A stretch of 64,000 nt of DNA from Patescibacteria group bacterium (GTDB lineage: Bacteria; Patescibacteriota; Minisyncoccia; Phycocordibacterales; Phycocordibacteraceae), in assembly GCA_018826905.1 (NCBI GenBank), contig JAHJYC010000005.1, forward strand, positions 46,681 to 110,680, read 5' to 3'. Each line of letters opens with the position of its first letter. Position 1 is the first letter of the stretch. The notes beneath the pieces were generated by a model. It was not told the DNA's origin, ran no database searches, and saw only the letters and a list, made by a program, of their open reading frames with translations. This document shows, in pieces, positions 3,001 through 32,485 of the stretch. A program made the translations under genes and the position numbers.

Positions 3001-5197
3001 GAACGCAGATGTGGCAGTGGGCGCAAATAATTACGCTATCTATGCAGGAAACACAGCCAAGTCATACTTTGCTGGCAACGTTGGTGTTGGGCCTGCCTCT
3101 CCACTTTCTAAATTGCATGTTTCAGCAACTGCAGCTGCAAGTATGACCCTTGGTTCTCCTACAGGTGTAGGTCTCACAGTTTCTCCAACTGGAGGCGGCT
3201 ACGGTCTTAACTTTGGAGCAAACTCTGATGGAAAGTCTTGGATTCAAGGAGGACGTGTTGATGGAACTGCAACTGCATACAACATTAGTATGCAGGCGGC
3301 AGGCGGTAACGTCGGTATCGGTACCACAAACCCTTCAGGAATGCTCACTGTCGGTGGTGTCCAGAGCGGTAATGCAGGTCTTGAAATTGTCCCAGGATCG
3401 GGTATTACGATGCAGGCGTATAATCGCACGAGCGTTGCCTATGCTTCTTTGAGTCTAGACGGAACAGCAATCAACATGCGCCCAAGCGGAACAATCATGG
3501 CAATAGTTAACGGAAGCGGACTTTTTGTATCAAACCTTGTCTCTTGTGGAGGTGTGCAGACAAACGGCTCAGGACTCATGAGCTGTACGTCAGATGAAAA
3601 CCTTAAGGATGTAGAGAGTGAATTCACTTCTGGCCTTACGGCAATCCGTGGCATTACCCCACAGACCTACACATGGAAGGAGGGAACTGAGTACTTTGAT
3701 GGAGGAATCCAGTACTCAGGATTCATTGCGCAGAACGTAGGAGCAAATATCCCTGAAGCGATGTCTACAGGCGCAAGTGGATTCAAGCAAATCAACACCA
3801 CGACAATCCTTGCAGCATCTGTGAACGCAATTAAAGAACTGGGAGACCGTACTGACTCGCTTTCGCTCGCGACCTCAACACTCGCTTCACGCCTCACCGT
3901 ACTTGAAGCAGCATCGTCAACACCAAAGGCTGTTGCGGCAACTGACCTTACAGCAACAGGCATCATTGTGACGGGGAATGGCTCCTTCACAGAAACAGTG
4001 TCCGCAAAGCGCTTCACTGTTGCAAACATAGAGCAGAGCTTCTCAATAGGAAGCACCACTGTATCAGTTGAGCTCCCTTCAAATGTACTCACTACTACAG
4101 GAAATGCAGACCTCTATAAGGTTGCTACGTACGCTATTGCAAAAGTACAAGCACTTGCAGACAGAACAGATCTTCTTGCGACTCGTATTGATTCAATTGA
4201 GTCTCGTTTGGTTGCACTTGAGAACGCGACTACTTCAGTTACAAGTATTGCGACCGGCACTCTTGATCTTGCAACAACAACAATCAAACAAGCACTCCGC
4301 AGCCTCGGCATTATGATTGAAGACGGTATCGCGCAGTTCCAGACACTGGTCTTCCGTCAGCTCGCAGTGTCTCAAGACGAAGACGGTGCATCGTCTGCAG
4401 GACAAGAAACTATCCTAGAAGGGAACACTGCCGTAAGGGTGGAAAACCAGTTTGTGCTCACAACTTCAAAGATCTTCGTTACCTTCACGAGTCCTGTTGA
4501 GGGCGCGTGGTACATCAGCAACAAAGAGCAGGGAAGCTTCAGGGTTACACTTGAACGTGCACAATCTTCAGATGTAAGCTTTGACTACTTCATCCTTCAG
4601 ACTGAAGGCCAGCTCGCTTCACCTGCCGGTGCTCCGCAACCAGTACAACAACCGGCGCCGCTTCCAGCAGTACCGCCAACCTCAGATCAGCAGGGAGGAA
4701 ATGAAGGAGGTACTTCAGCACCAGAAAACACCTCTGGAGACACAACTGCCCCACAGATAACATTGAACGGACAAGCAGCAAGAGAAATCACAAAGGGAAG
4801 TAGTTGGACTGATCCAGGAGCAACTGCAACAGATGAGACTGATGGAGATCTCACGGCAGCTATACAAAAAACAGGCTCTGTAGATACAAATACAGTAGGC
4901 ACCTACACAATCTCTTACTCCGTCTCTGATGCCGCAGGAAACGAGGGCCACGTATCACGCATTGTGACTGTTAAGGAAGGTACAACTTCAGGATCTGGTA
5001 CTACTCCAGCTCCAGCACCTACCCCGGCTCCAGCTCCAGCACCTGAGCCAACACCCGAACCTGCGCCAGCTCCTGCCCCTGCGCCAGCACCTACCCCGGC
5101 TCCAGCTCCCGCTCCCGCGCCTGCACCAGCTCCTGCCCCTGCGCCAGCACCTACCCCGGCTCCGGCTCCAGCTCCCGCGCCTGCACCAGCAGCGTAG
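2..5197 (+). CDS. Giant surface / tail-fibre-like repeat protein, 5' truncated by the window edge. It carries about 11 GNVGIGTTxP...L repeats, an internal peptidase-S74 intramolecular-chaperone domain (SDENLKDV autocleavage motif, ~3590-3960), a coiled coil, a DUF5011-like Ig domain (~4740-4975) and a C-terminal (PAPAPT)n tail.
   Basis: The reading frame is open from base 2 with no upstream stop; the ORF track gives 125..5197. The NVGIGTTSP/NPLAKL-type motif recurs through the first ~3.3 kb. 'SDENLKDVESEF...TYTWKEGTEYFDGGIQYSGFIAQNV' matches the endosialidase / T5 pb1-type chaperone-of-endosialidase domain. Confidence 0.75.
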   Translation, partial: TDDDIVLGSGLYLQNSGTVYGSQLVNLSSGDNAAVGVPSTGVVINRNIADANSALLVSQVHAGSTGDIVQFLNSAGAQVVIKQSGNVGIGTTSPSYPLAVEGDINANGKYRVNGTQVLYLPNQTSLTGSLIYGNGGNSLSNTSGNEGRYNTGLGLGALTAMTTGSFNTAIGQNALEDTTTGTFNVGLGGSALFQNITGSFNLAIGYSALGGSTSNSSTVAIGTQTGDRVTADGGTYIGHQAGRGASTYSSTGTTAVGFQAGSIGTPGNYNTFLGYRAGYIVTGATNTLLGYQAGDNVTSGSNNIVIGNNIDAPSATASNQLNIGNIIFGTTISGTGTTLSTGNIGIGTTNPLAKLVVVGGNANSFRIDNAGEQYTSMDYYNAGSSKATTYYDNSGAEFVMRTTGSASIGFDTNLTRKMTITSAGNVGIGTTTPGTLLSISGSSAALTITDTRDVTGSIGDVVNSIDFRSNDASNLLAGAVRTKISSVAEDIYWSQTGLAFSTHNGTTLSEKLRITNAGSVGIGTTTPQGQMHVIGNIFATGSNGAGGPGGLGLVAIPGSPISGRLTYGTDGTGWMFRIAKNQGGTVTDQFTIVDNGNVGIGTTSPISTLHVENTIGTASTQLSIVNGVSSDFTGSSILLQSANTARGNGIFSLNGSSEWYMGTPYSNDVFTIARSATATHSNATAQLTNSLLTIYPTGKVGIGTSTPATTLDVYSSGNTGLQVGGPSTASPYIQLNQGAVTRAFMQYNNAGGYTEYYSSAPHYFSTSNVGIGDTSPDAKLDILQASDTSAQGFQISRSNDTDYTRLYMSAGVGSLSDTLIFNTSFGGDVAAIGRDGSAYFAGNVGIGTASPTKKLLVATNTVNGDGITVVNGSTGSYLTLEANGATGFGVSKWAHSTVLEAVPSSTGGLVLGAYTGDITFQTSGRSNSMTILENGNVGINNTSPSYRFTVSDSTSSGIAGRFAQGGLGSPFGIYATASGAGTQNTAGYFQAGSATTNIGVNADVAVGANNYAIYAGNTAKSYFAGNVGVGPASPLSKLHVSATAAASMTLGSPTGVGLTVSPTGGGYGLNFGANSDGKSWIQGGRVDGTATAYNISMQAAGGNVGIGTTNPSGMLTVGGVQSGNAGLEIVPGSGITMQAYNRTSVAYASLSLDGTAINMRPSGTIMAIVNGSGLFVSNLVSCGGVQTNGSGLMSCTSDENLKDVESEFTSGLTAIRGITPQTYTWKEGTEYFDGGIQYSGFIAQNVGANIPEAMSTGASGFKQINTTTILAASVNAIKELGDRTDSLSLATSTLASRLTVLEAASSTPKAVAATDLTATGIIVTGNGSFTETVSAKRFTVANIEQSFSIGSTTVSVELPSNVLTTTGNADLYKVATYAIAKVQALADRTDLLATRIDSIESRLVALENATTSVTSIATGTLDLATTTIKQALRSLGIMIEDGIAQFQTLVFRQLAVSQDEDGASSAGQETILEGNTAVRVENQFVLTTSKIFVTFTSPVEGAWYISNKEQGSFRVTLERAQSSDVSFDYFILQTEGQLASPAGAPQPVQQPAPLPAVPPTSDQQGGNEGGTSAPENTSGDTTAPQITLNGQAAREITKGSSWTDPGATATDETDGDLTAAIQKTGSVDTNTVGTYTISYSVSDAAGNEGHVSRIVTVKEGTTSGSGTTPAPAPTPAPAPAPEPTPEPAPAPAPAPAPTPAPAPAPAPAPAPAPAPAPTPAPAPAPAPAPAA
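4984..5194 (+). repeat. Coding tandem repeat: imperfect 60-bp units (at least two near-identical copies at ~5068-5127 and 5128-5187) encoding a (PAPAPT)n low-complexity tail.
   Basis: Direct repetition of 'agctcctgcccctgcgccagcacctaccccggctcc(a/g)gctcc...' is visible in the sequence. It is translated as TPAPAPAPAPAPAP... Confidence 0.8.
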
Positions 5198-5265: not shown

Positions 5266-6276
5266 ATGGCACTGCGTGTAGCAATCAATGGATTTGGAAG
5301 AATAGGAAGGGCATTTGTACGACACTCTTGGGACAATCCAGAGATAGAGCTCGTTGCAGTGAATGACTTGGGGTCAGTAGAGAACCTTGCATACCTGCTT
5401 AAATACGACACCGTCTATGGAAAAGCACCGTTTTCTGTAGAGGTGCAAGACGGAAACCTCCGTATTAACGGAAAAGAGGTTCGTTTCCTCTCAGAAAAAG
5501 ATCCCGCACTCCTTCCTTGGAAAGATGTAGGAGTTGATGTAGTTGTTGAATCAACTGGATTCTTTACGAACTACGAGAAGGCAAATGCACACGTAGCTGC
5601 CGGCGCTCGCCGTGTGGTTATTTCAGGTCCTGTGAAGGAAGAGAATCCGCTTGGTGCAACAGTGCTCATGGGGCTTGATGAGAGCAAGATCGGTACCTGT
5701 GCCATAACAAGCAATGCGTCTTGTACGACAAACGCATCCTCTCCTGTTATTGCCATTCTTGACGAAACTATTGGTATTGAGAAAGCAGTGCTCTCCACAA
5801 CACACGCCTACACAGCAAGTCAGTCAATCGTGGATGGTCCTGCAAAGAAAGACATACGCGAGGGAAGAGCAGCAGCACAAAATATTGTTCCTACCTCAAC
5901 AGGAGCAGCTGTTGCAGTAACAAAAGCGTACCCTGCCCTTGAAGGAAAGTTTGATGGTATTTCACTCCGCGTTCCTGTACCTGCGGGATCTATTGCGGAC
6001 ATTACGTTTATCGCCAAGAGAAACACCACCAAAGAAGAGGTAAACGACATATTGAGAGCAGCTGCGAAAGACCCACACTGGGAAGGATTGTTCGCTGCTT
6101 CAGATGAAGAACTTGTATCAAGCGACATAATAAATGAGAAGTACGCCTCAATTGCAGATCTTGCGATGACGCGAGTAGTTGATGGAAATCTCGTAAAGGT
6201 ACTTGCGTGGTACGACAACGAAGCGGGGTACACAGCGACACTGGTGCGCCATGTACTGAAGGCGGGGAAGCAATAA
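5266..6276 (+). CDS. gap: Glyceraldehyde-3-phosphate dehydrogenase.
   Basis: N-terminal NGFGRIGR Rossmann motif, active-site 'ASCTTN' and the C-terminal WYDNE motif. 336 aa. Confidence 0.92.
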   Translation: MALRVAINGFGRIGRAFVRHSWDNPEIELVAVNDLGSVENLAYLLKYDTVYGKAPFSVEVQDGNLRINGKEVRFLSEKDPALLPWKDVGVDVVVESTGFFTNYEKANAHVAAGARRVVISGPVKEENPLGATVLMGLDESKIGTCAITSNASCTTNASSPVIAILDETIGIEKAVLSTTHAYTASQSIVDGPAKKDIREGRAAAQNIVPTSTGAAVAVTKAYPALEGKFDGISLRVPVPAGSIADITFIAKRNTTKEEVNDILRAAAKDPHWEGLFAASDEELVSSDIINEKYASIADLAMTRVVDGNLVKVLAWYDNEAGYTATLVRHVLKAGKQ

Positions 6277-6279
6277 TCT

Positions 6280-6819
6280 ATGATGACGGAAAGACTTAAT
6301 TCCCGTCAAAAAGGATTCACCCTGATAGAGCTACTTGTTGTTATCGCTATCATTGGTCTTTTGTCTTCCGTTGTTCTTGCGTCACTGAATACAGCGAGAG
6401 TTAAGTCACGAGATGCAAAACGCATTCAGGATCTTACCAGTATTAGGACTGCGCTTGAACTGCATTTTCTGGACAGAGGATATTATCCGCAATCGGGATG
6501 CGGATGGGACTGTAACGGGTATCGGTACAGCTACGACTCCTCGTGGACAACGCTTGCAGCTGATCTTGCTCCTTACATAAAGCAACTACCAGTAGATCCA
6601 TTGAATGCTCCAGGGTGCGGCCCATGGGGTAATGGGTGCTACACCTATGCCTATGGAAATGTTGGAAGAAATACCTATCCACACCAGTATGACCTCACGG
6701 CACAACTTGAAGACCCTACTAGTTCGCACCGATGTTCTGTAAAGGGATACCTGTTTTATTTCAATAATCAGCCGTGGTGTGGAGGGTACTCTGGACAGAT
6801 ATATGAAGCTTCAAGATAA
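6280..6819 (+). CDS. Type IV pilin-like / pseudopilin protein with a prepilin-type N-terminal cleavage-methylation domain.
   Basis: 'KGFTLIELLVVIAIIGLLSSVVLASLNTAR' class-III signal peptide with a G^F cleavage site. Confidence 0.8.
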   Translation: MMTERLNSRQKGFTLIELLVVIAIIGLLSSVVLASLNTARVKSRDAKRIQDLTSIRTALELHFLDRGYYPQSGCGWDCNGYRYSYDSSWTTLAADLAPYIKQLPVDPLNAPGCGPWGNGCYTYAYGNVGRNTYPHQYDLTAQLEDPTSSHRCSVKGYLFYFNNQPWCGGYSGQIYEASR

Positions 6820-6841
6820 AAGTAAGTGGTATGCTTAAGAT

Positions 6842-7093
6842 ATGAAAGAGGTTCAATTTGATGGAGAACAGTATAGGACTCCTAGGTACCAAGCCCCAAA
6901 GAAGAAAGGATTCGCAGAGATGCTTATTGCCTGGGGAATAGTTAAGAATGAACAGCAGGCAGGATATGTACTAGCGGGAGGTGCGGCTACAGTGCTCATT
7001 CTCTCTCTTTTTATTTTTTTATCGGGAGGAACGAGTACACTGAATAAGAACCCTTCACTTGTTCCTGAAATTGCCGTACCAATCGGCCCTTAA
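6842..7093 (+). CDS. Small single-TM membrane protein. It is paralogous to ORFs 13049..13285 and 42355..42594, each of which is adjacent to a pilin gene.
   Basis: 83 aa. Shared pattern: F-D/N-x-E-Q ... KKP/KKG ... LAKD/VKNEQ ... TM helix ... Pro-rich C-terminus. Confidence 0.5.
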   Translation: MKEVQFDGEQYRTPRYQAPKKKGFAEMLIAWGIVKNEQQAGYVLAGGAATVLILSLFIFLSGGTSTLNKNPSLVPEIAVPIGP

Positions 7094-7096
7094 CCT

Positions 7097-7585
7097 ATGA
7101 CTATATATATTGCCGCAGATCATACTGGTATCATTTTAAAAACGGCACTCGTTGAGTATCTCCAAGAAGCACTTTCATACGAAGTTGAAGACATGGGAGC
7201 ACATGAAATTGCTCCAGACGATGATTATCCAGACTATGTAGTGCCGTGCGCTAAGAAAGTAGTCGCGAACCAAGGATCTCTTGGGATTGTAATCGGTGGT
7301 TCAGGTCAAGGAGAAGCAATGGCAGCGAACCGTGTATCTGGGGTGCGTGCCGCGCTCTTTTACGGACAAGCCCACGCAACAGGTCCTATTGATGCGCTCG
7401 GCGCACCAGCCCTGGACGGGTACGATATCATCCGTCTTGCAAGAGAACACAACAACGCAAACATACTTTCTCTTGCTGCGCGGTTTATAACTTTGGACGA
7501 TGCGAAAGAGGCAGTACGCATTTTCCTCTCAGCAGGATTTACGGCAGACGAGCGACATGTACGACGCATTCAAAAGCTCGGCTAA
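7097..7585 (+). CDS. rpiB: Ribose-5-phosphate isomerase B (RpiB/LacAB family). It has the Glu-type active site seen in mycobacterial RpiB (GGSGQGE).
   Basis: 'IYIAADHTGIILK...GIVIGGSGQGEAMAANR' aligns with the RpiB family. Confidence 0.8.
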   Translation: MTIYIAADHTGIILKTALVEYLQEALSYEVEDMGAHEIAPDDDYPDYVVPCAKKVVANQGSLGIVIGGSGQGEAMAANRVSGVRAALFYGQAHATGPIDALGAPALDGYDIIRLAREHNNANILSLAARFITLDDAKEAVRIFLSAGFTADERHVRRIQKLG

Positions 7586-7589
7586 CACT

Positions 7590-8306
7590 ATGGCTATTAT
7601 CATTCCAGCAATTATCCCTACCTCTAAAGAACATCTTGAAGAGTCTCTTCTGAAGCTCAAAGGGCTCTGTTCTGAAGTACAGGTAGATGTAGTTGATGGA
7701 ACATTTGCGTCTCCTTTGTCATGGCCCTATGGAACAAAGGATCTAACGGCAATGCACGATGAAGGAGAAATGCTCCCAGGGTGCGGAGAGTTCAGCTTTG
7801 AAATTGATCTCATGAGTGCCGATCCTGAGACAGACACAGGACCATGGATAACGGTGGGAGCTACACGGGTAACTGTTCATGCAGAAAGCACCCCGTACCT
7901 AAATCGTTTCTTTAAGAATATCCGTGGCGAGTACGGACATGACAAAGATTTTGTGTCAGACTTGCTTTCAATTGGGCTTGCAGTTGGTATTGAAACAGAC
8001 ACTGCTCTCCTAGAGCCCTATCTTGAAGACGTTGAGTACGTACAATTCATGGGAATTCGTTCTATTGGAAAACAAGGACAGGGGTTTGATTCTCGCGTCT
8101 TGCCGAAGATACGCGCATTTAAGAAGAAGTATCCGAATATACCCATTCAAGTAGATGGAGGAGTATCTCTAACTACTGCACCTGGGTTACTTGAGGCAGG
8201 AGCATCTCGTCTCGTTGTTGGTTCTGCACTGTGGAACTCTGCAGACCTTAAGGAAGAACTAGAGAAGTTTATATCACTCACAGAACGACACGGTATCTAC
8301 GGATAG
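7590..8306 (+). CDS. rpe: Ribulose-phosphate 3-epimerase-family TIM-barrel protein (divergent).
   Basis: 'IIPAIIPTS...VQVDVVDGTFASP...FEIDLMSA...VTVHAES...IQVDGGVS...AGASRLVVGSALW' parallels the RPE motifs IAPSILSAD / HFDVMDNHYVPN / DVHLMV / EVDGGV. The start was set at ATG 7590, just after the rpiB stop, rather than the overlapping ORF-track start at 7500. Confidence 0.65.
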   Translation: MAIIIPAIIPTSKEHLEESLLKLKGLCSEVQVDVVDGTFASPLSWPYGTKDLTAMHDEGEMLPGCGEFSFEIDLMSADPETDTGPWITVGATRVTVHAESTPYLNRFFKNIRGEYGHDKDFVSDLLSIGLAVGIETDTALLEPYLEDVEYVQFMGIRSIGKQGQGFDSRVLPKIRAFKKKYPNIPIQVDGGVSLTTAPGLLEAGASRLVVGSALWNSADLKEELEKFISLTERHGIYG

Positions 8307-9185
8307 GTGCATGGTATTCTCTATATAATGTCACGTACTGATACTGAGCTCGCTCTACTTGATACAAAAGCCGCAGCAATACGCGAAACAATTCTAGACA
8401 TGCTTGTTGCGGCAGGCTCAGGACATACTGCAGGGCCCTTAGGTATGGCAGATATCTTCGCTGCCTTTTATTTTGATGTACTTGTGCATGACCCGAAGAA
8501 TCCAGAATGGGAAGAGAGAGACCGGCTACTGCTCTCCAATGGACATATTGTACCGGTACAGTACGCCACCATGGCGCATTCGGGGTATTTTCCTGTAGAA
8601 GAATGCCTCACGCTCCGCAAGTTTGGCAGTCGTCTGCAAGGACACCCTGAACGAGACCGGTTGCCGGGCCTTGAGACAACATCTGGCCCGCTTGGGTCAG
8701 GACTTTCTCAAGCCTCTGGTATGGCATACGCATTTCGAATGGATGGAAAGAAAAATCGTGTGTACTGCTTGATGTCAGATGGAGAGCAACAGGAAGGAAA
8801 CATATGGGAAGCAGTTATGTTTGCAGGCAAGAACCGTCTCTCAAATCTTACGGCTGTTATGGACCGCAACAACATTCAGATAGACGGAATGACAGAAGAC
8901 GTTATGCCGCTGGAGTCTTTAGCAGCAAAATACGAAGCATTCAACTGGCATGTTCTTGAGGTAAACGGACACAACATCTCAGAATTTATTGATGCCGTTG
9001 AAACAGCAAAGGCAGTGTACGAGAAACCAACACTCATCATTGCACACACAATTCCAGGGAAAGGAGTTCCTGAGATTGAGTTTGACTACAAGTGGCACGG
9101 AAAGCCACCCTCAAAGGAAGAAGCAAAGCGCTTTATTCAGCAATTACGCTCGGGAGCGGGAAGGGTGCCGAACGAGTATGCCTAA
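8307..9185 (+). CDS. tkt: Transketolase N-terminal subunit (thiamine-diphosphate-binding half of a split transketolase).
   Basis: 'GSGHTAGPLGMADIFAAFYF...LLSNGH' TPP-binding motifs. 292 aa, which is half-length. An alternative start is ATG 8328. Confidence 0.85.
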   Translation: MHGILYIMSRTDTELALLDTKAAAIRETILDMLVAAGSGHTAGPLGMADIFAAFYFDVLVHDPKNPEWEERDRLLLSNGHIVPVQYATMAHSGYFPVEECLTLRKFGSRLQGHPERDRLPGLETTSGPLGSGLSQASGMAYAFRMDGKKNRVYCLMSDGEQQEGNIWEAVMFAGKNRLSNLTAVMDRNNIQIDGMTEDVMPLESLAAKYEAFNWHVLEVNGHNISEFIDAVETAKAVYEKPTLIIAHTIPGKGVPEIEFDYKWHGKPPSKEEAKRFIQQLRSGAGRVPNEYA

Positions 9186-9729
9186 GAGAGGATTCACACT
9201 CATAGAACTTCTCGTTGTTATTGCAATTATCGGCATTCTTTCTTCAGTGGTGCTTGCTTCTTTGAATACTGCTCGCGAGAAAGCAAAAGTAGCAAACGCA
9301 GTGTCTCAACTAAGACAGTTTCGTAATGTGGTGGCGTTGTATTTTACGGACACCGGACAGTATCCTGCAGGGTGTGGACTAAGTTGCACAGCGAGTACTG
9401 ACCCGTATTTAAATGCACTTGGTGTTCCTGGGTGGAACGGCCCGTATTTTGCAGGTGGTGTGTGGAATCTAGAACACCCATGGGGAGGACACTTCACCAT
9501 AGACAGTGCTGACCTTACGGGAGACGGTCAGCCAGAGATGTATTTCTTTCTGGACGAGGATGCACCAGGAACCAATAGTAGCGACAACACGGGAATCATA
9601 CCGTTGTCTGCTCTCCTTGCCATTGATAAAACTCTTGATGATGGAGATCTTGCAACAGGAAACTTGCGTGGCAATGGACTTGGCTTTACCTCAGCCGTAG
9701 GGGAGTTGGTGTACGCACCTCAATTTTAA
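9178..9729 (+). CDS. Type IV pilin-like protein (prepilin N-terminal domain).
   Basis: 'MPKRGFTLIELLVVIAIIGILSSVVLASLNTAREKAK'. ATG 9178 overlaps the tkt-N stop by 8 bp. The ORF-track upstream extension was rejected. Confidence 0.8.
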   Translation: MPKRGFTLIELLVVIAIIGILSSVVLASLNTAREKAKVANAVSQLRQFRNVVALYFTDTGQYPAGCGLSCTASTDPYLNALGVPGWNGPYFAGGVWNLEHPWGGHFTIDSADLTGDGQPEMYFFLDEDAPGTNSSDNTGIIPLSALLAIDKTLDDGDLATGNLRGNGLGFTSAVGELVYAPQF

Positions 9730-9767
9730 ATACTCCGCGTCCCTTCCTACGGTATACTTATACAAAT

Positions 9768-10742
9768 ATGATACAGCCGACAGCACATCTCGCAGACAAT
9801 CTTTTTGCAAAAGATATAGAAAAGAAACCAACTCGTGATGGATTTGGTACTGGAACAGTTGCGGCAGGAAAAAAAGACAAGAATGTCGTTGTGTTGTGTG
9901 CAGATCTAAAAGAATCAACACGTGCGGAATGGTTTGAAAAGGAGTTCCCTGATAGATTCGTTGAGATTGGTGTTGCTGAGCAGAATCTGGCAACAGTAGG
10001 GAGTGGTATGGCGGCTGTAGGAAAGGTGCCATTTGTTGCGTCCTATGCCGCCTTTTCTCCGGGACGAAACTATGAGCAGATACGAACAACTATTGCGCTG
10101 AATCAACAGCACGTCATTGTGTGTGGTATGCACGCAGGTGTTTCAGTAGGGCCAGATGGTGCAACGCATCAGATGCTTGAAGACATTGGCCTCATGCGTA
10201 TGCTTCCTGGTATGACGGTGCTTGTCCCAGGAGACGCGCTTGAAGCGCACAAGGCAGTGGTTGCTGCGGCAACACATAACGGACCGGTGTATATACGATT
10301 TGGACGCACGGCCTCTCCTGTCTTTAGTACTGAAGAGACTCCGTTTGAAATTGGAAAGGCAGTTCTGCTTTGGGATCACGCAAAACCGCGGGTAGCAATT
10401 ATGTCTACAGGAACACTTTCATACCAGGCACTGCTTGCAGCAAAAGCACTGGCAGCAGAAGGTACTGAAGTCTCTGTACTTCATGTGCCAACAGTTAAAC
10501 CACTTGATACAGAAGCAGTACTCGCTCTTGCAAAACGTGCTGGCCGCATTATCACAGTTGAAGAACATCAGACGATGGGAGGCTTCGGAAGTGCAATTGC
10601 CGAATGTGTTTCAGAACACTATCCAGTGCCAGTGCATCGTATGGGAGTGCAAGACCTGTTTGGACAGTCCGGAGATCCTGATGAATTGATGCAGCACTAT
10701 GGGCTTTCTGCTACTCACATAGTTGAAGCCGTTCGCTCGTAG
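9768..10742 (+). CDS. tkt: Transketolase C-terminal subunit (pyrimidine-binding plus C-terminal domains).
   Basis: 'FVEIGVAEQNLATVGSGMAAVGKVPFVASYAAF' pyrimidine-binding domain. 324 aa. Confidence 0.85.
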   Translation: MIQPTAHLADNLFAKDIEKKPTRDGFGTGTVAAGKKDKNVVVLCADLKESTRAEWFEKEFPDRFVEIGVAEQNLATVGSGMAAVGKVPFVASYAAFSPGRNYEQIRTTIALNQQHVIVCGMHAGVSVGPDGATHQMLEDIGLMRMLPGMTVLVPGDALEAHKAVVAAATHNGPVYIRFGRTASPVFSTEETPFEIGKAVLLWDHAKPRVAIMSTGTLSYQALLAAKALAAEGTEVSVLHVPTVKPLDTEAVLALAKRAGRIITVEEHQTMGGFGSAIAECVSEHYPVPVHRMGVQDLFGQSGDPDELMQHYGLSATHIVEAVRS

Positions 10743-10743
10743 A

Positions 10744-10920
10744 GTGCCGTATACTAAACAGGTGAAGGGAAAGAAACTAAATCTTTACGTCGCGGCACTG
10801 GTTATAACAGTATTCGGTGCCGGAGCAACGATGCTCATTGTTTCTGCAGCGTCTGACGTGGCCGTACCTGAGTACGCAAACGTTGATCCCTTTTCTCCTA
10901 CCGTTGATTTTGGACACTAA
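10744..10920 (+). CDS. Possible small single-TM protein. It may be a diverged member of the pilin-adjacent small-protein family.
   Basis: Open frame after the tkt-C stop. 'KKLNLYVAALVITVFGAGATMLIVS...VPEYANVDPFSP'. Start is uncertain (GTG 10744 / TTG 10723). Confidence 0.3.
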   Translation: MPYTKQVKGKKLNLYVAALVITVFGAGATMLIVSAASDVAVPEYANVDPFSPTVDFGH

Positions 10921-10946
10921 AAAGCCTGCAAAATGCAGGCTTTTTT
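10921..10946. terminator. Bidirectional rho-independent terminator hairpin between convergent genes.
   Basis: 'aaaagcctgca aaa tgcaggctttttt', a perfect stem flanked by A and T tracts. Confidence 0.7.
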
Positions 10947-11945
10947 CTAGTTGAGTTCCGTAAGTGTGTATTCCGGCGGAGCATCTTTTAAGTACGCGTC
11001 CAATGCCTCTCGTGTGAGGAGACCTTTTTGTGCACCCACTTCCTGTACAACTGACATAGAGTTAATAGGGCCCCAGAGGAGTGCCTGGTCTAGAGGGTAT
11101 CCAAGTGCTAGCGCTACAGCAACGGTTGCAGAGAATGCATCTCCCGCTCCGGTGCGTTCAAAGGGGGGACGAGTATCAGGATACATAGGCACGTGTAGTT
11201 TTCGTGCACCGTCATATGCATACGCACCTTCTCGTCCGTCAGTAATAACTACAATCTTTGGGCCAAGCGCGTGAATCTCTTCAAGGAGTACTTTTATGTC
11301 GTGCTCCTCAGGGAGTTCTAAGATGCGCTGAGCTTCTTCTTTGTTTGAGAAGAAAAGCTCGCTTCGTGCGTAGAGGGGAGCCAACGCTTCTTTGCCGATC
11401 TTCATTTGGAATGTTCCCGGCTGGAACACGAGCTTGGTCTCTGGGTGTGCCTCAAGCAATGCAACGAGTGCTTCATGGTACGGAAGAGAATTCTCTGCAA
11501 GTGAAGAAAGGTATATCCATTTCGGGCTCTCAGACAGTTCTGGGACGGTGTATGCAAACTCTTCGTGCTTAACCAAAATAGTGCGCTCACTGCCGTACCA
11601 GAGAACGAAATGATAATTAGTTATTTTCCCTGCCTCCGTCACCATAAGTGAGGTGTCTACCCCCTCTTTCTGAAGTACTTCAATACACTCAGTTCCGTAT
11701 CGATCATCTCCTACATAGGAGCGCAGGGATGCAGGAAGACCAAGACGGCTCGCTGCAACTGCTGCATTTGATGCGTTTCCAACAGCAACGGCGTGTACGG
11801 CGTACTCGTAGGGGATTTTGTCTCCAAAACGCATGCAAATCTCTTTGCTCTCAGGATTAACTCCTGGCGCAACGTGTGCATCTGTAAGGCGAATAAACGG
11901 TTCTGTAACAATGTCGCCTATAGCGAGAAATTCAATGTGTGACAT
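10947..11945 (-). CDS. PfkB-family carbohydrate kinase (ribokinase / fructokinase-like).
   Basis: C-terminal 'GAGDAFSA' PfkB signature. 332 aa. Confidence 0.8.
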   Translation of the reverse strand: MSHIEFLAIGDIVTEPFIRLTDAHVAPGVNPESKEICMRFGDKIPYEYAVHAVAVGNASNAAVAASRLGLPASLRSYVGDDRYGTECIEVLQKEGVDTSLMVTEAGKITNYHFVLWYGSERTILVKHEEFAYTVPELSESPKWIYLSSLAENSLPYHEALVALLEAHPETKLVFQPGTFQMKIGKEALAPLYARSELFFSNKEEAQRILELPEEHDIKVLLEEIHALGPKIVVITDGREGAYAYDGARKLHVPMYPDTRPPFERTGAGDAFSATVAVALALGYPLDQALLWGPINSMSVVQEVGAQKGLLTREALDAYLKDAPPEYTLTELN

Positions 11946-12012
11946 AGAGGTAGTATAGCAAGCTTGTGTACTAAGAGCTGTGGAGTACCTATACAGGCTA
12001 TACTGTTTTCAT

Positions 12013-13008
12013 ATGACCAATCTTTCAGATACAGCGCAGCAACTGGTAGCTCATGGGAAAGGTATTTTGGCTGCAGACGAGAGCTTTTCAACTGCAGACA
12101 AACGACTTCGTGAGTACGGAATAGAGCCGAGCGAAGAAATGCGTCGCAAGTTCCGTGACATGCTTCTCGCGACACCTGGAATTGATACGTATTTGTCTGG
12201 GGTTATTTTGTACGAAGAGACACTAGAGCAAAATGCTGACAATGGAATTCCGTTTGCAACACTTCTTGCAAACGAGCATGTGCTCCCTGGAATCAAAGTA
12301 GATCAAGGACTGGACGAATTCCCCGATTCCCCTGGAGAGAGTATTACTAAAGGATTACTTGGGTTACCGGAACGGCTTCAAGAATACCGAGATACGTATG
12401 GAGCTCGCTTTACGAAGTGGCGTGCAGCCATTCGTATTGAAGGGGATCGTCTTCCAACTTCAGCAATGCTTGTTGAGAACGCGAAGCGCCTTGCAAGCTA
12501 CGCCTACGAAGTACAAAAGGCAGGTATGGTTCCTATGGTAGAACCTGAAGTGCTTCTTGAGGGAGCACACAGCAGACTCCGTGCACGAGAGGTTGTGGAA
12601 ACAACGTTGCATGTACTCTTTGATGCGCTTGCTGAACAGAACGTTGATCTCTCGGGAATACTCCTTAAGACGTCAATGGTGCTCTCAGGAAGCAAGAGCG
12701 GCCGCACGGATACGTCAGAGGAAGTGGCAGAGGACACGCTTGCGGTATTGCTCGCTAGTGTGCCTAAGGAAGTGCCTGGAATTGTATTCCTATCAGGCGG
12801 ACAGGGTCCAGACCAAGCAACTGACAATTTAAGAGCCATTACCGCCAGAGCAAAGGAGGTGCAGGCACCATGGATCCTTACGTTTAGCTACGCCAGAGCC
12901 CTTCAGGAAGAAGCACTTGCTGTATGGAAAGGGAAGGATGAGTATGAGGACGCAGCAAGAGAGGTCTTTATAGGAAGACTTAAAAAAGTCCAAGCCGCTC
13001 TTGCATAA
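12013..13008 (+). CDS. fba: Fructose-bisphosphate aldolase, class I.
   Basis: 'AHGKGILAADES' class-I aldolase signature. The start was set at ATG 12013. Confidence 0.85.
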   Translation: MTNLSDTAQQLVAHGKGILAADESFSTADKRLREYGIEPSEEMRRKFRDMLLATPGIDTYLSGVILYEETLEQNADNGIPFATLLANEHVLPGIKVDQGLDEFPDSPGESITKGLLGLPERLQEYRDTYGARFTKWRAAIRIEGDRLPTSAMLVENAKRLASYAYEVQKAGMVPMVEPEVLLEGAHSRLRAREVVETTLHVLFDALAEQNVDLSGILLKTSMVLSGSKSGRTDTSEEVAEDTLAVLLASVPKEVPGIVFLSGGQGPDQATDNLRAITARAKEVQAPWILTFSYARALQEEALAVWKGKDEYEDAAREVFIGRLKKVQAALA

Positions 13009-13048
13009 CTGTGGTTGAAGAATACCGCAAAGACGGTATGGTGTATTT

Positions 13049-13285
13049 ATGGCTGTTGAATTTAATGAGCCTACCTATACCGCATCTCAGACTGTAGGTG
13101 CAGCGCGCAAACCATCCCTCTTTGTAAGAATCATCTTGAAAACAGGTCTTGCAAAGGATGTGGCACAGGCAGAAAAAGTCCTCCTTATACTGATTTGCGC
13201 CGCATTCCTTGCGGCCCTAGGTATATTTTTTGTAAGTAGCTCTGGAACTTCAGGAGTAGTCCCACTTCCAGAACCGATACTATGA
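13049..13285 (+). CDS. Small single-TM membrane protein, a paralog of 6842..7093 and 42355..42594. It lies immediately upstream of a pilin gene.
   Basis: '...EFNEPTY...ARKPSLFVRIILKTGLAKDVAQAEKVLLILICAAFLAALGIFF...VVPLPEPIL'. A 4-bp ATGA overlap joins it to the next gene. Confidence 0.5.
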   Translation: MAVEFNEPTYTASQTVGAARKPSLFVRIILKTGLAKDVAQAEKVLLILICAAFLAALGIFFVSSSGTSGVVPLPEPIL

Positions 13286-13764
13286 ACAGAAGGAGAAGCG
13301 GATTTACTCTCATAGAGCTTCTCGTGGTGATAGCCATAATTAGTCTGTTGTCTTCTGTGGTGATTGCCTCTCTAAATACCGCACGACTTAAGGGTAGGGA
13401 AGCAAAGCGCCAAGCTGAAATTGCATCAGTTATGCGAGCAATTAGTCTCTATAGGCTAGACAATCCAGGGAGCTACCCACCCATTGGGGGCGACTTGCAT
13501 GGATGTACTACAAACACCTGTTTATCAGTGCTCACCGACGAACTGGTGCCCAAGTACATACAAGAAATTCCCATGGACCCAAAATTTGGTAATACGAGCA
13601 CCGGATATAGGTATTGCAGGAGTGGTTCATACCCAAACGAATATGCAATTTTAAGGCAGAGTGAAAAGACAGGAGCATGGTGTTCGGTCCAAACACCGGC
13701 TCCGGTATCGGGAACATTTTGCTGGCATACTGCAGGGGTGCCTACGTATCCGCGCTGCAATTAA
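13282..13764 (+). CDS. Type IV pilin-like protein.
   Basis: 'SGFTLIELLVVIAIISLLSSVVIASLNTARLKGREAKRQAE'. Confidence 0.8.
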   Translation: MNRRRSGFTLIELLVVIAIISLLSSVVIASLNTARLKGREAKRQAEIASVMRAISLYRLDNPGSYPPIGGDLHGCTTNTCLSVLTDELVPKYIQEIPMDPKFGNTSTGYRYCRSGSYPNEYAILRQSEKTGAWCSVQTPAPVSGTFCWHTAGVPTYPRCN

Positions 13765-13804
13765 CTTGCCTCACAGGCTGTTTTCAGGCATACTCCATTC
13801 CACT

Positions 13805-14440
13805 ATGCACAGCCTTACCGCAACCCCCCGCACTGTTACTGGAAAGACCTCTGAGCTTCTTGCAAAGGACGGCCTTATTCCAGCAATAGTCTACGGTCCG
13901 AAGCAGGACCCTATTACCATTTCTCTTTCGCTTCATGAGTTTGAGGCAGTGCTTCGCCATGGAGGAGAATCTGCGCTTATAGAACTCTCTGGACTTGAGA
14001 AGCCAATGCAGGTGCTTATTCATGATTTGGATCGCGACCCAGTGACCCATACTCCTCGCCATACTGATTTGTATGCAGTTCAAAAGGGAGCAAAGGTAAC
14101 GGTATCAACACAGCTTTCATTTGTGGGTGAGTCTCAGGCAGTAAAAGAAGGTGCAAACCTTGTTAAGGTGCTTCATGAAGTGGAGATTGAATCAGATCCT
14201 TCAAAGATTCCTACTGAGATTGAAGTTGATATCAGCTCGCTCGTTACTCTTGAGGACCAGATCCGCGTATCAGACATTAAGGCCCCAGCAGGTGTTGAAA
14301 TCCTTACTCCTGGAGATGAGATCGTTGCTCTAGCGCAGGCTGTTGAAGAGGAGCCAGAAGAGGAGACGGCTGCTCCTGACATGGACAGTATTGAGGTTGA
14401 GAAGAAAGGAAAGGAGGAAGAGTCTACAGAAAGCGAATAA
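13805..14440 (+). CDS. rplY: 50S ribosomal protein L25 (general stress protein Ctc form) with an acidic C-terminal tail.
   Basis: 'TGKTSELLAKDGLIPAIVYG...' L25 fold signature. The start was set at ATG 13805. Confidence 0.8.
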   Translation: MHSLTATPRTVTGKTSELLAKDGLIPAIVYGPKQDPITISLSLHEFEAVLRHGGESALIELSGLEKPMQVLIHDLDRDPVTHTPRHTDLYAVQKGAKVTVSTQLSFVGESQAVKEGANLVKVLHEVEIESDPSKIPTEIEVDISSLVTLEDQIRVSDIKAPAGVEILTPGDEIVALAQAVEEEPEEETAAPDMDSIEVEKKGKEEESTESE

Positions 14441-16044: not shown

Positions 16045-16437
16045 ATGCTCACTATTTCTTTCGCCATGCACATTCTCCGATCCAAACCAGCAATCATTAG
16101 TTTCATAGTGCTGGCATTGGCCGTGCTAGGGCTTCTATACTATTTCCTTATTTTTAAGGAAACAAACCCAAAATCAGTGACTCTCCATACCTACGTCTGT
16201 AGTGATGGATCGTACTATTTCATGCGTGTTGACGACAAAGCGATTGAGGTTGCTGGTGTGCGATACGAGCTTGTTTCAGAAGAGGAAGGTATGCGCTACG
16301 AGGGAACAGGACCGATGGCGTTTACAATTAACGCTCCAGCTCTCAACGTATCGCTTAGAGAATCGGGTGAGGTGATAGCCGCATGCGAGCAAGGTTCAGT
16401 TGAAAGCACTCCCATTCTTGAACTGAAAAATATATGA
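16045..16437 (+). CDS. Hypothetical small membrane-anchored secreted protein (two Cys). It is downstream of, and probably co-transcribed with, the transglycosylase gene.
   Basis: N-terminal TM helix, 130 aa, 4-bp ATGA overlap with the following gene. A weak resemblance to MliC-type lysozyme inhibitors is speculative. Confidence 0.45.
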   Translation: MLTISFAMHILRSKPAIISFIVLALAVLGLLYYFLIFKETNPKSVTLHTYVCSDGSYYFMRVDDKAIEVAGVRYELVSEEEGMRYEGTGPMAFTINAPALNVSLRESGEVIAACEQGSVESTPILELKNI

Positions 16438-18272
16438 CACACATAACTACCGTATCCTTTTTGCATATGAACCGTTCATTCATCTTTCTATTTGTTTTCG
16501 CTTCCTTCTTTTTCGCTCTTGCAACACCACAGGCTCAAGCTTGTCGGTTTACCTGTTCTGTTGGCTCTGGAGGCTACATAGAGACTGGTCCAGGGCGCAC
16601 GGTCTGCCATGCCGGGGATACAGGAGGTGTTGATGCAGCCTGGGAAGGGTGTGATGAGGGGGGTGGCAATGATAGTGGAGGAGGAGGAGGGGGCGGAGGT
16701 GGAGGAGGGGGCGGCAGTAATCCCGACCTTACCGCAAGCGGTATCTCTCCACAGTCAGCAACAGTTGGATTTTCACAGACATATTCTGCGACTATCACGA
16801 ATGGAACTTCGGGGTTTGCGGGCGCGTCAGTTGCTCTCTTCCAGAAGGCAACCAACTCAAGCGGTGCAAATGCGGAAAACATCGGAACTGCCACAACTGA
16901 AAGCCTCGGTGGCGGCGCTTCTAGGAATGTCTCTTTGAGCTATACGCAGGGTTCTGTTGGTACGTTCTACATGAGAGCGTGTGCTGATACCAATAATGCA
17001 GTCGCTGAGACCAGTGAGAGCAATAACTGTGGTCCGTGGACCGCTGTAAACATTCAGCAGGTAACATCTGGCTCAGCGTGTGCGGTAACCACTACGGTCG
17101 GGCAACCAACGCCCTTTACGTTTGATGCAACAGGAAACTTTGCTCCAAGAAACGAAGTACGGTTTGTTGTACGTTGGCAGGGCACTTCTCCTAGTTACTA
17201 CCCTGACGACACGACGTGGTTCACCTCACTTCCTCAGGTCATATCAAATACTTGGAATGCGCCAGGGACATATACCATGACAGCGAGTGCCATGAGTAAT
17301 ATTGCTGGCGGGGGGTTTGCTGACCCGGTCGCTGTCTCAATTAATGGCTCCGGGTACGCTGTGAATCAATCTTGTGTCGTTACGGTGCAGGGTAATGAAA
17401 ACCTACCCGACCTTACGGCAGGGAGCATCTCTCCAACAACAGCACGAGTTGGGCAATCGGTTGCGCTCTCTGGAACAGTTACAAATATAGGAGCGGCTGT
17501 TGCTCCTGCCAGTAACACCTACTTCAGAATCTTGAATAGTGGAGGAAAGCAAATCTACCAAAACACGGTAAATATACCTGCAATACAGCCGAGTGCAGGG
17601 GACACGCGTTCAGTCTCCTACACCTTTACTGCAGAAGGAACGTATCAAGCGCAAATCTGTGGAGACTGGTTTGGATCAGTTACAGAATCAAACGAGAACA
17701 ATAACTGTGGTCCGCTTACCCCGATTAGCGTAACCAGCATCGTGAATGCGAATACCGTGTCTTGTTCAGTAAGTAATACGAATGTAAATCCTGGCGGGTC
17801 AGTAACCTACACAGCAATTCCTTCAGGAAGTGCGACAGGTCCATATACTTGGGTTGCGGACGACGGAGCTACAGGGTTTGGGACTAACGGGACGGCAACA
17901 CGTACCTTTGCTACTGCTGGTAACTACGGCATGCAGGTCTCTGCGACGGTTACCAGTCCTGCACAATGTCCAATTGTTACCGTTGCTGCGTGTGTAGGAA
18001 CACCTACCGTAGAGATTACAGCCACTCCAGCTCGTGTGCGGTCAGGGAGTACAACTACCCTGCGATGGTCAGGAACTGCCATAAACAACACCTGTACTAT
18101 CACGGGTCCTGGCGTGTCTCAAACTGTGTCTGCAGCCTCGTGTACCGTTCCTGAAGGAACTACAAGTTCCGGTACTATCACTACACAGAGTACGTACAGT
18201 ATTAGTTGTGATAACGGAGCAGTTACTGATTCTGTTATCGTGAACGTTATCCCTGAGTTTGAAGAGTTTTAA
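16434..18272 (+). CDS. Secreted surface protein with a poly-Gly tract, two CARDB-like domains (ending 'ESNxNNCGP') and an Ig-like Cys-pair domain. The C-terminus reads ...IVNVIPEFEEF.
   Basis: Signal peptide. 'GGGNDSGGGGGGGGGGGGG'. CARDB motifs 'DLTA.GISP...VTN.G...ETSESNNCGP'. 612 aa. Confidence 0.75.
   Translation: MTHITTVSFLHMNRSFIFLFVFASFFFALATPQAQACRFTCSVGSGGYIETGPGRTVCHAGDTGGVDAAWEGCDEGGGNDSGGGGGGGGGGGGGSNPDLTASGISPQSATVGFSQTYSATITNGTSGFAGASVALFQKATNSSGANAENIGTATTESLGGGASRNVSLSYTQGSVGTFYMRACADTNNAVAETSESNNCGPWTAVNIQQVTSGSACAVTTTVGQPTPFTFDATGNFAPRNEVRFVVRWQGTSPSYYPDDTTWFTSLPQVISNTWNAPGTYTMTASAMSNIAGGGFADPVAVSINGSGYAVNQSCVVTVQGNENLPDLTAGSISPTTARVGQSVALSGTVTNIGAAVAPASNTYFRILNSGGKQIYQNTVNIPAIQPSAGDTRSVSYTFTAEGTYQAQICGDWFGSVTESNENNNCGPLTPISVTSIVNANTVSCSVSNTNVNPGGSVTYTAIPSGSATGPYTWVADDGATGFGTNGTATRTFATAGNYGMQVSATVTSPAQCPIVTVAACVGTPTVEITATPARVRSGSTTTLRWSGTAINNTCTITGPGVSQTVSAASCTVPEGTTSSGTITTQSTYSISCDNGAVTDSVIVNVIPEFEEF
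17406..18272 (+). repeat. Copy A of an ~870-bp dispersed duplication (~85% nt identity to 20689..21558). It encodes a CARDB domain plus an Ig-like domain plus the IPEFEEF terminus.
   Basis: Visual alignment of the two segments. The protein identity is about 90%. Confidence 0.85.
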
Positions 18273-31705: not shown

Positions 31706-32485
31706 TTAGTCCTCAATATCAATGCGTACTGAACGAGAGTTGTTTCCTTCGTTAGACTCGCTTATGTCGCGGTCTGGGTCTACGACGATAGTAATCTCAC
31801 GATCGTCTCCTTCGCGTGTTTGGTCAAATCCAAGGACGTAATCAATGCGCTCTCCAGGCTTGAGTGACTCTTGCTTGCCTGAGTGGAAGGTATAGCTACG
31901 GCTCGTTGGGAGCTCTGCATCAAATTCAAAGCGTCCTGAGATGTTTGTACCACGGTTAGCGATGGTGAACTTCACCGCACCACGCTCTCCATCTGGAACA
32001 CGGCTTGAAGCACGGAACGTGTCAGTGTCTGAAGACGTAAGGTATCCAGTAGTGATGTTTTCAATCACAAGGTCAGGGAGACCAAAGAGGGGAGCTGGAG
32101 TTGTTCCAACCTGTACGACACGCGTGACGGGAGTTCCTGGTGTTGGTGTTACCGGTGTAGTGTCTGGTGTCTCTGTTGCAGGAGGAGTTGTTGTTGCTGC
32201 AGGGATATCGTCTCCAAAGGGAACAGTCTCTGTGGGTGGAACCACAACGAGATCTGTGTCCTCAGTGTTTGGCTGGAATGCAGATGAGAAGTACACCGCA
32301 GCTGAACCGATGCGAGAAATAGCAGACGGCACAAAAGTTGCTGCATAAATGGCAAGCGCCATTCCAATAAGAATAAGGACGATAAATCCAACGATTGCAA
32401 GACCGTTTACCGCTGCACGGCGAACAGGCCTCTCCGAAGTTCGTAGTGTGGTCAGTTCCATATGCGCATTGTTTACCACACCCAT
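31706..32485 (-). CDS. N-terminally anchored secreted protein with a Thr/Pro-rich linker and a CARDB-like domain.
   Basis: TM helix. 'TTPPATETPDTTPVTPTPGTPVT'. CARDB end motif 'DPDRDISESNEGNNS'. Confidence 0.65.
   Translation of the reverse strand: MGVVNNAHMELTTLRTSERPVRRAAVNGLAIVGFIVLILIGMALAIYAATFVPSAISRIGSAAVYFSSAFQPNTEDTDLVVVPPTETVPFGDDIPAATTTPPATETPDTTPVTPTPGTPVTRVVQVGTTPAPLFGLPDLVIENITTGYLTSSDTDTFRASSRVPDGERGAVKFTIANRGTNISGRFEFDAELPTSRSYTFHSGKQESLKPGERIDYVLGFDQTREGDDREITIVVDPDRDISESNEGNNSRSVRIDIED

Follow-up and report, generated by a model that had tools for sequence, protein, structure and literature searches.

Three of the four prepilin genes in a 64,000 nucleotide (nt) window from a Patescibacteria group bacterium (assembly GCA_018826905.1, contig JAHJYC010000005.1, positions 46,681 to 110,680) lie directly beside a small open reading frame (ORF) predicted to encode a protein with one transmembrane (TM) segment, raising the question of whether these ORFs are related and whether they have a part in pilus biology. 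We use FAM as a working name for the small-ORF family, whose members in the window are S1, S2 and S3. Because FAM lies beside a pilin gene in about 85% of cases, it may well be an undescribed accessory part of Patescibacteria pili, and we assign a probability of about one half to the reading that it is an accessory membrane factor for type IV pilins and type IV pili (T4P). The Patescibacteria, or candidate phyla radiation (CPR), make up a large share of bacterial diversity, and their scattered pilin genes have so far been treated as orphans. T4P are the best-supported host-attachment and motility organelles of this group (PMC11623550, PMC6744442), and a conserved, abundant small partner protein would supply a missing part of the CPR pilus system.

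Small ORFs beside prepilin genes form one family

Prepilin-type genes had been predicted at four places in the window and all four are upheld: each matches Pfam N_methyl above the gathering score (E 4e-10 to 1e-8) and carries an exact GFTLIELLVVIAIIG, and a six-frame regular-expression scan of the window found no prepilin genes beyond these four. All are on the + strand. Prepilin gene 1 (6280-6819, 179 amino acids (aa), N_methyl E 3.8e-10, motif at 6313) sits between the GAPDH gene and S1; gene 2 (9178-9729, 183 aa, N_methyl E 2.8e-9, T2SSG E 1.7e-5) sits between the genes for the N and C halves of transketolase (TktN, TktC) and is without a FAM partner; gene 3 (13282-13764, 160 aa, N_methyl E 1.9e-9) is the partner of S2; and gene 4 (41824-42333, 169 aa, alternative start 41842, N_methyl E 1.1e-8, motif at 41866) sits between DnaE, which is on the - strand, and S3. 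The three FAM members are also on the + strand. S1 (6842-7093, 83 aa) follows its pilin, starting 22 nt past the stop of gene 1 and ending 3 nt short of RpiB; S2 (13049-13285, 78 aa) precedes its pilin, its stop overlapping the start of gene 3 (ATGA); and S3 (42355-42594, 79 aa) again follows, starting 21 nt past the stop of gene 4, with its own stop overlapping the RNase HII start. They correspond to GenBank gene calls KJ819_00445, KJ819_00400 and KJ819_01355 in GCA_018826595.1, a Patescibacteria group bacterium, all annotated 'hypothetical protein'; the CPR origin originally supposed for this DNA is thereby borne out. Promoter and terminator scans around all three pairs scored at or below shuffle expectation and so give no operon boundaries.

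The original prediction held the three small ORFs to be homologous, and this is sustained, with the family-level searches decisive. Pairwise BLASTP similarity is modest and non-random (S1/S3 E 2e-8, S2/S3 4e-4, S1/S2 3e-3) at 28-38% mutual identity, and the three copies are, to judge from their sequences, old paralogues. When 1.84 billion representatives of 50% identity clusters were scanned with a profile of the three, no word index being used, at least 1230 clusters matched at E<=1e-3 and 19 at E<=1e-10; every match was 60-131 aa long, and nearly all aligned from residues 1-5, a few having short N-terminal extensions. Word-indexed homologue searches returned almost only self or unnamed matches, the names given being 'hypothetical protein'. 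Within the window the family hidden Markov model (HMM) matches S1 at E 7e-26, S3 at 1e-22 and S2 at 9e-22. An HMM of alignment columns 1-58, which comprise everything before the hydrophobic core, was built from 137 members with the window copies left out and run against the window's 1212 six-frame ORFs; it recovered S1 (E 1e-18), S3 (9e-17) and S2 (7e-16), the next-best ORF scoring 1.5. The homology of S1-S3 thus rests on the soluble N-terminal part and survives the suspicion of generic TM composition. The motifs originally listed for the small ORFs also match the consensus of the 140-member family alignment.

The prediction that the family had not been described before also holds. The 140 members gave only scattered, sub-threshold, generic-TM matches in Pfam-A 2025 (best E 2.8e-4, in 3 of 140) and no significant match in NCBIfam 20.0; against the PDB the best profile match was at E 0.39 and the best Foldseek match at E 7. 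Nor is FAM described in the CPR T4P literature that we searched, which covers pilins, PilBCDMNOT and disulfide enzymes (PMC6744442, PMC11623550). FAM is, by these sequence and structure comparisons, a large unnamed family, so far Patescibacteria-associated and outside every known family, with several paralogues per ~1 Mb genome. A preprint on the Pam pilus (10.64898/2026.03.03.709456) was set aside, as it concerns an unrelated donor-strand-exchange pilus.

A fourth, weaker candidate had been proposed at 10744-10920 (S4), and it does not belong: it scores E 1.6 against the three-copy HMM, and neither the 140-member HMM nor either half-HMM picks it up. S4, placed at 10762-10920 in the comparison with relatives, is instead a separate 51-63 aa single-TM ORF that directly follows transketolase-C in all syntenic relatives, with counterparts at 7127-7288 in locus L023, 2646-2837 in L025, 4142-4309 in L029 and 2777-2932 in L031, and 45-47% identity in L023 and L027.

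FAM is genetically linked to prepilin genes

We collected about 100 loci (numbered L001 onwards) from three sources, namely GTDB species genomes matched by the family motif (19), JGI metagenomes (74), and ten look-ups, made by exact match of eight family proteins; the recruiting motif was built from a 17-member, GLAKDEK-type subset of FAM. Most of the 19 GTDB loci carry Patescibacteria names (Saccharibacteria, Portnoy-, Wolfe-, Taylor- and Nomurabacteria, Minisyncoccia, UBA2103), three are named only 'bacterium', and one is an 'Acidimicrobiales' metagenome-assembled genome (L015, JBLIMJ010000014.1), the sole GTDB match naming a non-Patescibacteria lineage. The L015 contig may be mis-binned, since its arrangement of GT1, FAM and a - strand FtsW recurs in metagenome contigs L094, L086 and L101.

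A six-frame mapping of FAM genes (by HMM) and prepilin motifs gave 137 FAM copies, which fall into 51 clusters at 70% identity. A same-strand prepilin lies within 200 nt in 39 of the 46 evaluable clusters (about 85%), the other seven having no adjacent pilin and five further clusters being unjudgeable at contig ends. The chance expectation for a random gene is ~6%, based on 19 pilins not adjacent to FAM in 537 kb of the same loci (0.035 per kb). The prepilin is downstream only in 29 clusters, upstream only in 8 and on both sides in 2. The usual order is therefore FAM then pilin (31 clusters with a pilin downstream vs 8 upstream only), which makes S2 the typical case in the window and S1 and S3 the minority. 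The claim that order varies while adjacency is maintained can accordingly be kept in part: both orders do occur, but the arrangement with FAM upstream is canonical, and ~15% of copies lack a pilin neighbor. The Gly codon of the prepilin cleavage site lies a median of 23 nt from the FAM stop, meaning that the pilin start codon usually abuts or overlaps the FAM stop, a configuration that implies co-translation. We conclude that FAM and prepilin genes are genetically linked, and that the pairing is one-to-one, same-strand, and probably translationally coupled.

The pairing extends well beyond the window, and it recurs in many unrelated contexts. FAM-pilin pairs occupy at least five different slots of the glycolysis/pentose-phosphate operon, including GAPDH/RpiB, Rpe/TktN and PfkB/FBA, and are found also between DnaE and RNase HII and between GT1 and FtsW; pairs in the FAM-then-pilin order have, besides, unrelated flanks that include H+-PPase, ParB, GT1/IS200, CCA-adding enzyme, LAGLIDADG/Na-Ca exchanger, peptidoglycan-binding/RecG, serine recombinase and 2-Hacid_dh/DUF218. 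In two lineages a FAM-then-pilin pair lies behind the pilus motor operon: L018 reads PilB, response regulator, PilT, PilC, pilin, phosphoesterase, FAM, pilin, and L087/L089 read response regulator, PilT, PilC, FAM, pilin, the pair in the latter lying directly behind the motor genes. Neither pilM nor pilO was found beside FAM in any annotated locus. Raw counts of FAM-then-pilin pairs overstate their independence, because many matches represent one orthologous slot, in which FBA, FAM, pilin, L25 and SLT follow each other (S2 in the window, L014, L016, L022, L025, L031, L102); the C-domain of prepilin 3 is 44% identical to that of the L025 pilin in the same slot.

The pair duplicates and moves as a unit

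Tandem arrays of two to four FAM-then-pilin units occur in L047, L062, L067, L072, L098, L099 and L103. L098 and L099 are related metagenome contigs that carry three units (1113-3742) and four units (15-3448), respectively; L099 has two whole extra FAM-then-pilin units relative to L098, inserted between shared units. Across these two arrays identity is 54-82% among the FAM copies, whose N-termini nearly coincide and whose tails differ, and just 34-56% among the pilin heads. The DNA alignments of L098 and L099 overlap in the conserved 5' part of FAM, which points to recombination between FAM genes. A second kind of movement is suggested by pilin 1 of the window, whose C-domain is 72-74% identical to a pilin in L023 and L027 that is likewise followed by FAM, but in the Rpe/TktN slot instead of the GAPDH/RpiB slot. 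By sequence comparison this suggests that the pair of pilin 1 and S1 was relocated as a unit relative to L023/L027, a conclusion that must be tempered by the weak orthology of the FAM genes involved: the best L027 match of S1 is a different FAM copy (42% vs 39%). Taken over all loci, the FAM-pilin pair behaves as a unit that is duplicated, relocated, gained and lost.

Gene conversion among the 5' ends of the window's four pilin genes was considered and rejected, as synonymous sites vary among them (81% mean column identity). Genes of mobile elements (IS200/Y1 transposase, serine recombinase, LAGLIDADG endonuclease) adjoin several FAM-then-pilin pairs, at 7055-7726 in L010, 6489-6848 in L029, 4455-5780 in L021 and 4979-5650 in L019, and these neighbors hint at a variable or mobile setting for some of the pairs.

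Protein anatomy and predicted topology

In the 140-member alignment the N-terminal peptide is near-invariant, M-x-[DN]-[VI]-x-F-[DNE]-E-[EP]-x-[YF], and is followed by ~12 variable linker residues, a basic patch (K/K/S-P), a juxtamembrane segment with the consensus [LF]-V-x-L-V-[IL]-K-x-G-[LI]-[AV]-K-[DN]-E-K-x-A-x-x-V-L-L, and then ~20 hydrophobic residues. Conservation in fixed columns reaches 99% for F, 98% for A, 94% for L, 90% for G, 82% for E and 74% for K. The median length is 85 aa, and members have a single hydrophobic segment, the TM, which begins near residue 43. Three Lys/Arg in the 15 residues preceding the TM, against one following it, indicate an N-in/C-out topology, so that FAM is predicted to be bitopic and to share the topology of a membrane-inserted prepilin. 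An AlphaFold2 model of S1, based on the family alignment (pLDDT 79.9), has residues 1-23 without regular structure, a helix at 24-31, a turn at G32, and a long helix at 37-64, with no beta structure; the charged [LI]-[AV]-K-[DN]-E-K-x-A start of the long helix runs on as a single TM segment. The tail beyond it is low-complexity, with a median of 23 residues (range 0-70; Pro 16%, Ser 10%, Gly 10%). A shared Pro-rich tail had been noted originally; in the family at large the tail is the least conserved part of the alignment, and some members lack it.

A same-strand gene whose stop codon abuts or overlaps the start of a downstream pilin gene, and whose product has a TM segment with a Pro-rich C-terminus behind it, is also what one would look for in a cis-acting upstream ORF, either a monitor or arrest peptide of the MifM/SecM type or a translational-coupling leader, that sets the output of the downstream pilin while its peptide has no function in trans. 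Pro-rich C-terminal ends are common in arrest peptides (SecM, MifM, RAPP-type). Conservation in FAM, by contrast, sits in the N-terminal 58 columns with no conserved C-terminal motif; the tail is variable and comprises eight or fewer residues in 10 of 165 members; and because the TM ends just ~20 residues before the stop, it would still be inside the ribosomal tunnel at termination. The gene order also tells against a cis-acting role, with eight clusters having the pilin upstream and seven having none, RpiB, RNase HII, L25 or Rpe then being the gene that follows FAM. We regard this explanation as quite improbable.

The one-to-one pairing and the arrays would suit another role, in which FAM is a stoichiometric structural partner that is co-assembled with the pilin, or anchored in the membrane at the pilus base, with its variable tail touching the variable pilin head; in the L098/L099 arrays divergence affects FAM tails and pilin heads together and leaves the FAM N-termini nearly identical. 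There is precedent for a two-chain pilus subunit from adjacent genes, Gu et al. in 2021 having reportedly found that such genes encode the Geobacter pilus subunit (PilA-N/PilA-C). However, FAM has no class III signal peptide (N_methyl matches 0 of 140 members), its cytoplasmic N-terminus of ~43 residues could not enter the filament core, and its tail is short, low-complexity and at times absent; we regard a structural partnership as quite improbable.

A search for prepilin-peptidase motifs in FAM itself yielded, apart from the absence of N_methyl, only three weak Pilin_N matches and one weak Flp1_like match (E>0.01). The juxtamembrane K-x-G/[LI]-[AV]-K-D-E nonetheless resembles the prepilin cleavage site K-R-G/F-T-L-I-E (Gly at -1, acidic residue at +5), and FAM might on this account act on the prepilin peptidase PilD, as a pseudo-substrate or a regulator. 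The Gly is 90% conserved, position +1 is L, I, F or V in 99% of members, and +5 is E or D in about 55%. Yet this Gly precedes the charged K-D-E-K-Q and not a hydrophobic helix: positions +3 to +8 are charged, which places the Gly ~10 residues from the membrane core. Lys replaces the Gly in S3 and Val occupies +5 in S2, and with no member matching N_methyl, we consider a PilD-directed role very improbable indeed.

FAM without pilin, and pilin without FAM

Several observations weigh against FAM being an accessory factor of pilins, and the first concerns the adjacency itself, since the figure of 85% may not hold family-wide when the loci were recruited with one GLAKDEK-type motif. The seven pilin-free clusters among the 46 lie in housekeeping slots: between DnaE(-) and RNase HII (L005), RpiB and Rpe (L013, L017/L091), GT1 and FtsW(-) (L015, L094), and 2-Hacid_dh and L25 (L105, L106). 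The same slots elsewhere hold FAM followed by a pilin (L034/L035; L086, L036; many others) or a pilin followed by FAM (S3 in the window; L101; L050, L090). Three conserved slots keep FAM whether the pilin is missing or lies on the opposite side; the DnaE(-)/RNase HII slot, for example, has FAM alone in L005, FAM then pilin in L034/L035, and pilin then FAM in the window. This pattern indicates that FAM is the constant element, with pilins gained and lost on either side, and the pilin-free copies imply that FAM function does not strictly depend on a neighboring pilin. FAM is coupled tightly to RNase HII, as S3 is, both in the window and in the Saccharibacteria locus L005, which represent two distant lineages. 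Conversely, some pilins are never found with FAM, such as prepilin gene 2 of the window (9178-9729). The N-terminal helix of the pilins is identical in paralogues with and without FAM, and cognate specificity therefore cannot come from that helix. Finally, the long FAM helix was examined by helical moment for a packing face of conserved or small residues, and the result was not significant (p about 0.2-0.5); A57, L61, A65, A68 and A72 do share one helix face, on which we place no reliance. The idea of a dedicated partner survives insofar as FAM travels with prepilins, and is weakened, as regards any one particular pilin, insofar as FAM remains in conserved slots while pilins come and go.

These facts could also be explained if FAM were a small membrane protein of general envelope or housekeeping function with no role in pili, beside which pilins accumulate, whether because shared constitutive operons tolerate both genes or express both well, or because the FAM 5' region is a recombination target; the pilin-free copies in conserved housekeeping slots, the pilins on either side of FAM in the same slots, and the array indel breakpoint in the FAM 5' region (L098/L099) are all consistent with this. 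Such a protein would not, however, be expected to recur with a pilin in many unrelated contexts, including directly after pilC, nor to duplicate in tandem as part of whole FAM-pilin units, nor to share the overlapping or abutting stop and start codons that imply co-translation. The adjacency of about 85% against about 6% expected also argues against it, as does the fact that no other gene class adjoins FAM in a like manner. We judge it unlikely, and the reading of FAM as an accessory membrane factor for type IV pilins is the one carried forward here.

Some copies that look like exceptions to the pairing are still pilin modules, with the arrangements FAM-FAM'-pilin (L004, L033), a pilin with a long leader (L087), or pilin-75 aa-FAM (L075). 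FAM' (5974-6548 in L004 and 291-902 in L033, both Saccharibacteria) is a divergent paralogue between FAM and pilin that has no V-x-F-D-E-E N-terminus and starts ...KPLLYSRLIRS.... Prepilin gene 2 of the window overlaps the 3' end of TktN by 8 nt, and the same FAM-less arrangement of TktN, pilin and TktC is found in L013 (~8995) and L031 (1287-1772).

Comparison with known systems

The nearest concept among described proteins is TfpY/TfpX/TfpZ (FimB-like) of Pseudomonadota, which are encoded beside pilA and probably interact with pilins. Optimal assembly depends on them, and they are not part of the filament. TfpY-like proteins have 235-245 aa, three N-terminal TM helices, and a periplasmic alpha/beta domain with a mixed beta-sheet, and their gene is downstream of pilA (PMC11841053). 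FAM resembles them in being a membrane protein whose gene directly adjoins a pilin gene and moves with it, in having no recognizable catalytic domain, and in combining a conserved membrane part with a variable extracytoplasmic part. It differs in its size (~80 aa), single TM, lack of a globular domain and conserved cytoplasmic N-terminal peptide, as well as in its usual position upstream of the pilin, its several paralogues per genome and its occurrence in Patescibacteria rather than Pseudomonadota. No sequence similarity between FAM and TfpY/FimB was detected in the Pfam, NCBIfam and PDB searches. FAM thus shares the genetic logic of these proteins and fails their architectural definition.

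PilN, a protein with a ~150-residue periplasmic coiled-coil and ferredoxin-like domain encoded in pilMNO, is comparable in another respect, for its short and highly conserved extreme N-terminal peptide is said to bind PilM (Karuppiah and Derrick, 2011). Both proteins are bitopic and N-in, with a conserved extreme N-terminal peptide, a linker and one TM. FAM, by contrast, ends in a tail of just 0-70 low-complexity residues, has a pilin-linked gene, and carries the motif V-x-F-D-E-E in place of INLLP; the two are set apart here by architecture and motif. Geobacter PilA-N/PilA-C share with FAM-pilin pairs only the one-to-one partnership of two adjacent small genes. PilA-N carries a class III signal peptide and is a prepilin in its own right; FAM has no such peptide, and its partner is already a complete pilin.

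The private chaperones of type II secretion substrates in Acinetobacter, LipB/Lif and CpaB, are reported to be membrane-anchored proteins whose genes lie beside that of a single client (PMC4713064). They are like FAM in being single-pass membrane proteins of a T4P-related system encoded beside the protein they serve, and unlike it in having large periplasmic folding domains and soluble exoproteins, not pilins, as clients.

A proposed function

The function proposed for FAM is inferred from genomic association, and any specific contact is considerably less probable than the accessory role itself. Such a factor would be made with its pilin at roughly 1:1, the one-to-one gene pairing acting as a dosage device, and would be inserted beside the pilin in the membrane, where the long FAM helix might pack against the invariant N-terminal helix of the prepilin (alpha1-N). 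The acidic-aromatic N-terminal peptide and the juxtamembrane helix-turn-helix could engage an invariant partner, which may be the basic prepilin leader or alpha1-N, PilD, or the PilM/PilB/PilC platform. FAM might in this way stabilize, escort or hand over pilins that are encoded far from the machinery; its variable tail may follow the variable pilin head, and the pilin-free copies in housekeeping operons could serve as a basal pool for pilins without partners. The original suggestion of an immunity-like protein found no support.

A bolder proposal, which we offer as doubtful, is that FAM is a lineage-defining core component of Patescibacteria T4P, acting as a one-to-one escort of every modular pilin and, in addition, as a recombination handle for the gain, loss and shuffling of pilin cassettes, both in arrays and by slot-hopping within housekeeping operons. 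If the recombination handle were real, these episymbionts would gain a rapid way to vary the surface filaments with which they recognize their hosts. If the link to pilins is true, FAM would be a simple genomic marker for functional pilin cassettes and would hint at how the cell deals with pilins whose genes lie away from the machinery; it would be directly testable in genetically tractable Saccharibacteria, and it would show how much conserved biology hides in 'hypothetical' genes of fewer than 100 aa.

Other features of the window

The first two FAM-pilin pairs of the window lie within a dense + strand central-carbon operon at 5.2-14.5 kb, which comprises GAPDH, RpiB, Rpe, the transketolase N and C halves, PfkB (on the - strand), class I FBA, L25 and an SLT transglycosylase. 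The gene order GAPDH-RpiB-Rpe-TktN-TktC-PfkB-FBA-L25-SLT (5266-14440 in the window) is kept across Patescibacteria classes (L013, L017, L023, L027, L029, L031, L032), and its intergenic slots are repeatedly filled by pilin and FAM genes whose positions and orders are lineage-specific. The third pair belongs to a stretch at 14.5-45.6 kb with genes for CARDB/PKD surface proteins, RF, S2, EF-Ts, GT2, PheRS, GyrB, sortase, ThrRS, DnaE, RNase HII, NusB-Nudix and RNase III; no T4P machinery genes are among the annotated genes of this stretch. A giant ORF lies upstream of GAPDH at 125-5197 and is part of a 4165 aa gene in L001; L023 (4255 aa, with Peptidase_S74 and Ig-like domains) and L027 also carry giant ORFs upstream of GAPDH, the likeness being one of position only. 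The window is rich in cell-surface genes, with CARDB/PKD-domain proteins and sortase at 16434-18272, 19279-21558, 31706-32485 and 32615-33277. A single ORF of 300 aa at 44000-44902 has a NusB domain at its N-terminus (Pfam E 9e-36) and a NUDIX hydrolase domain at its C-terminus (Pfam E 4e-15).

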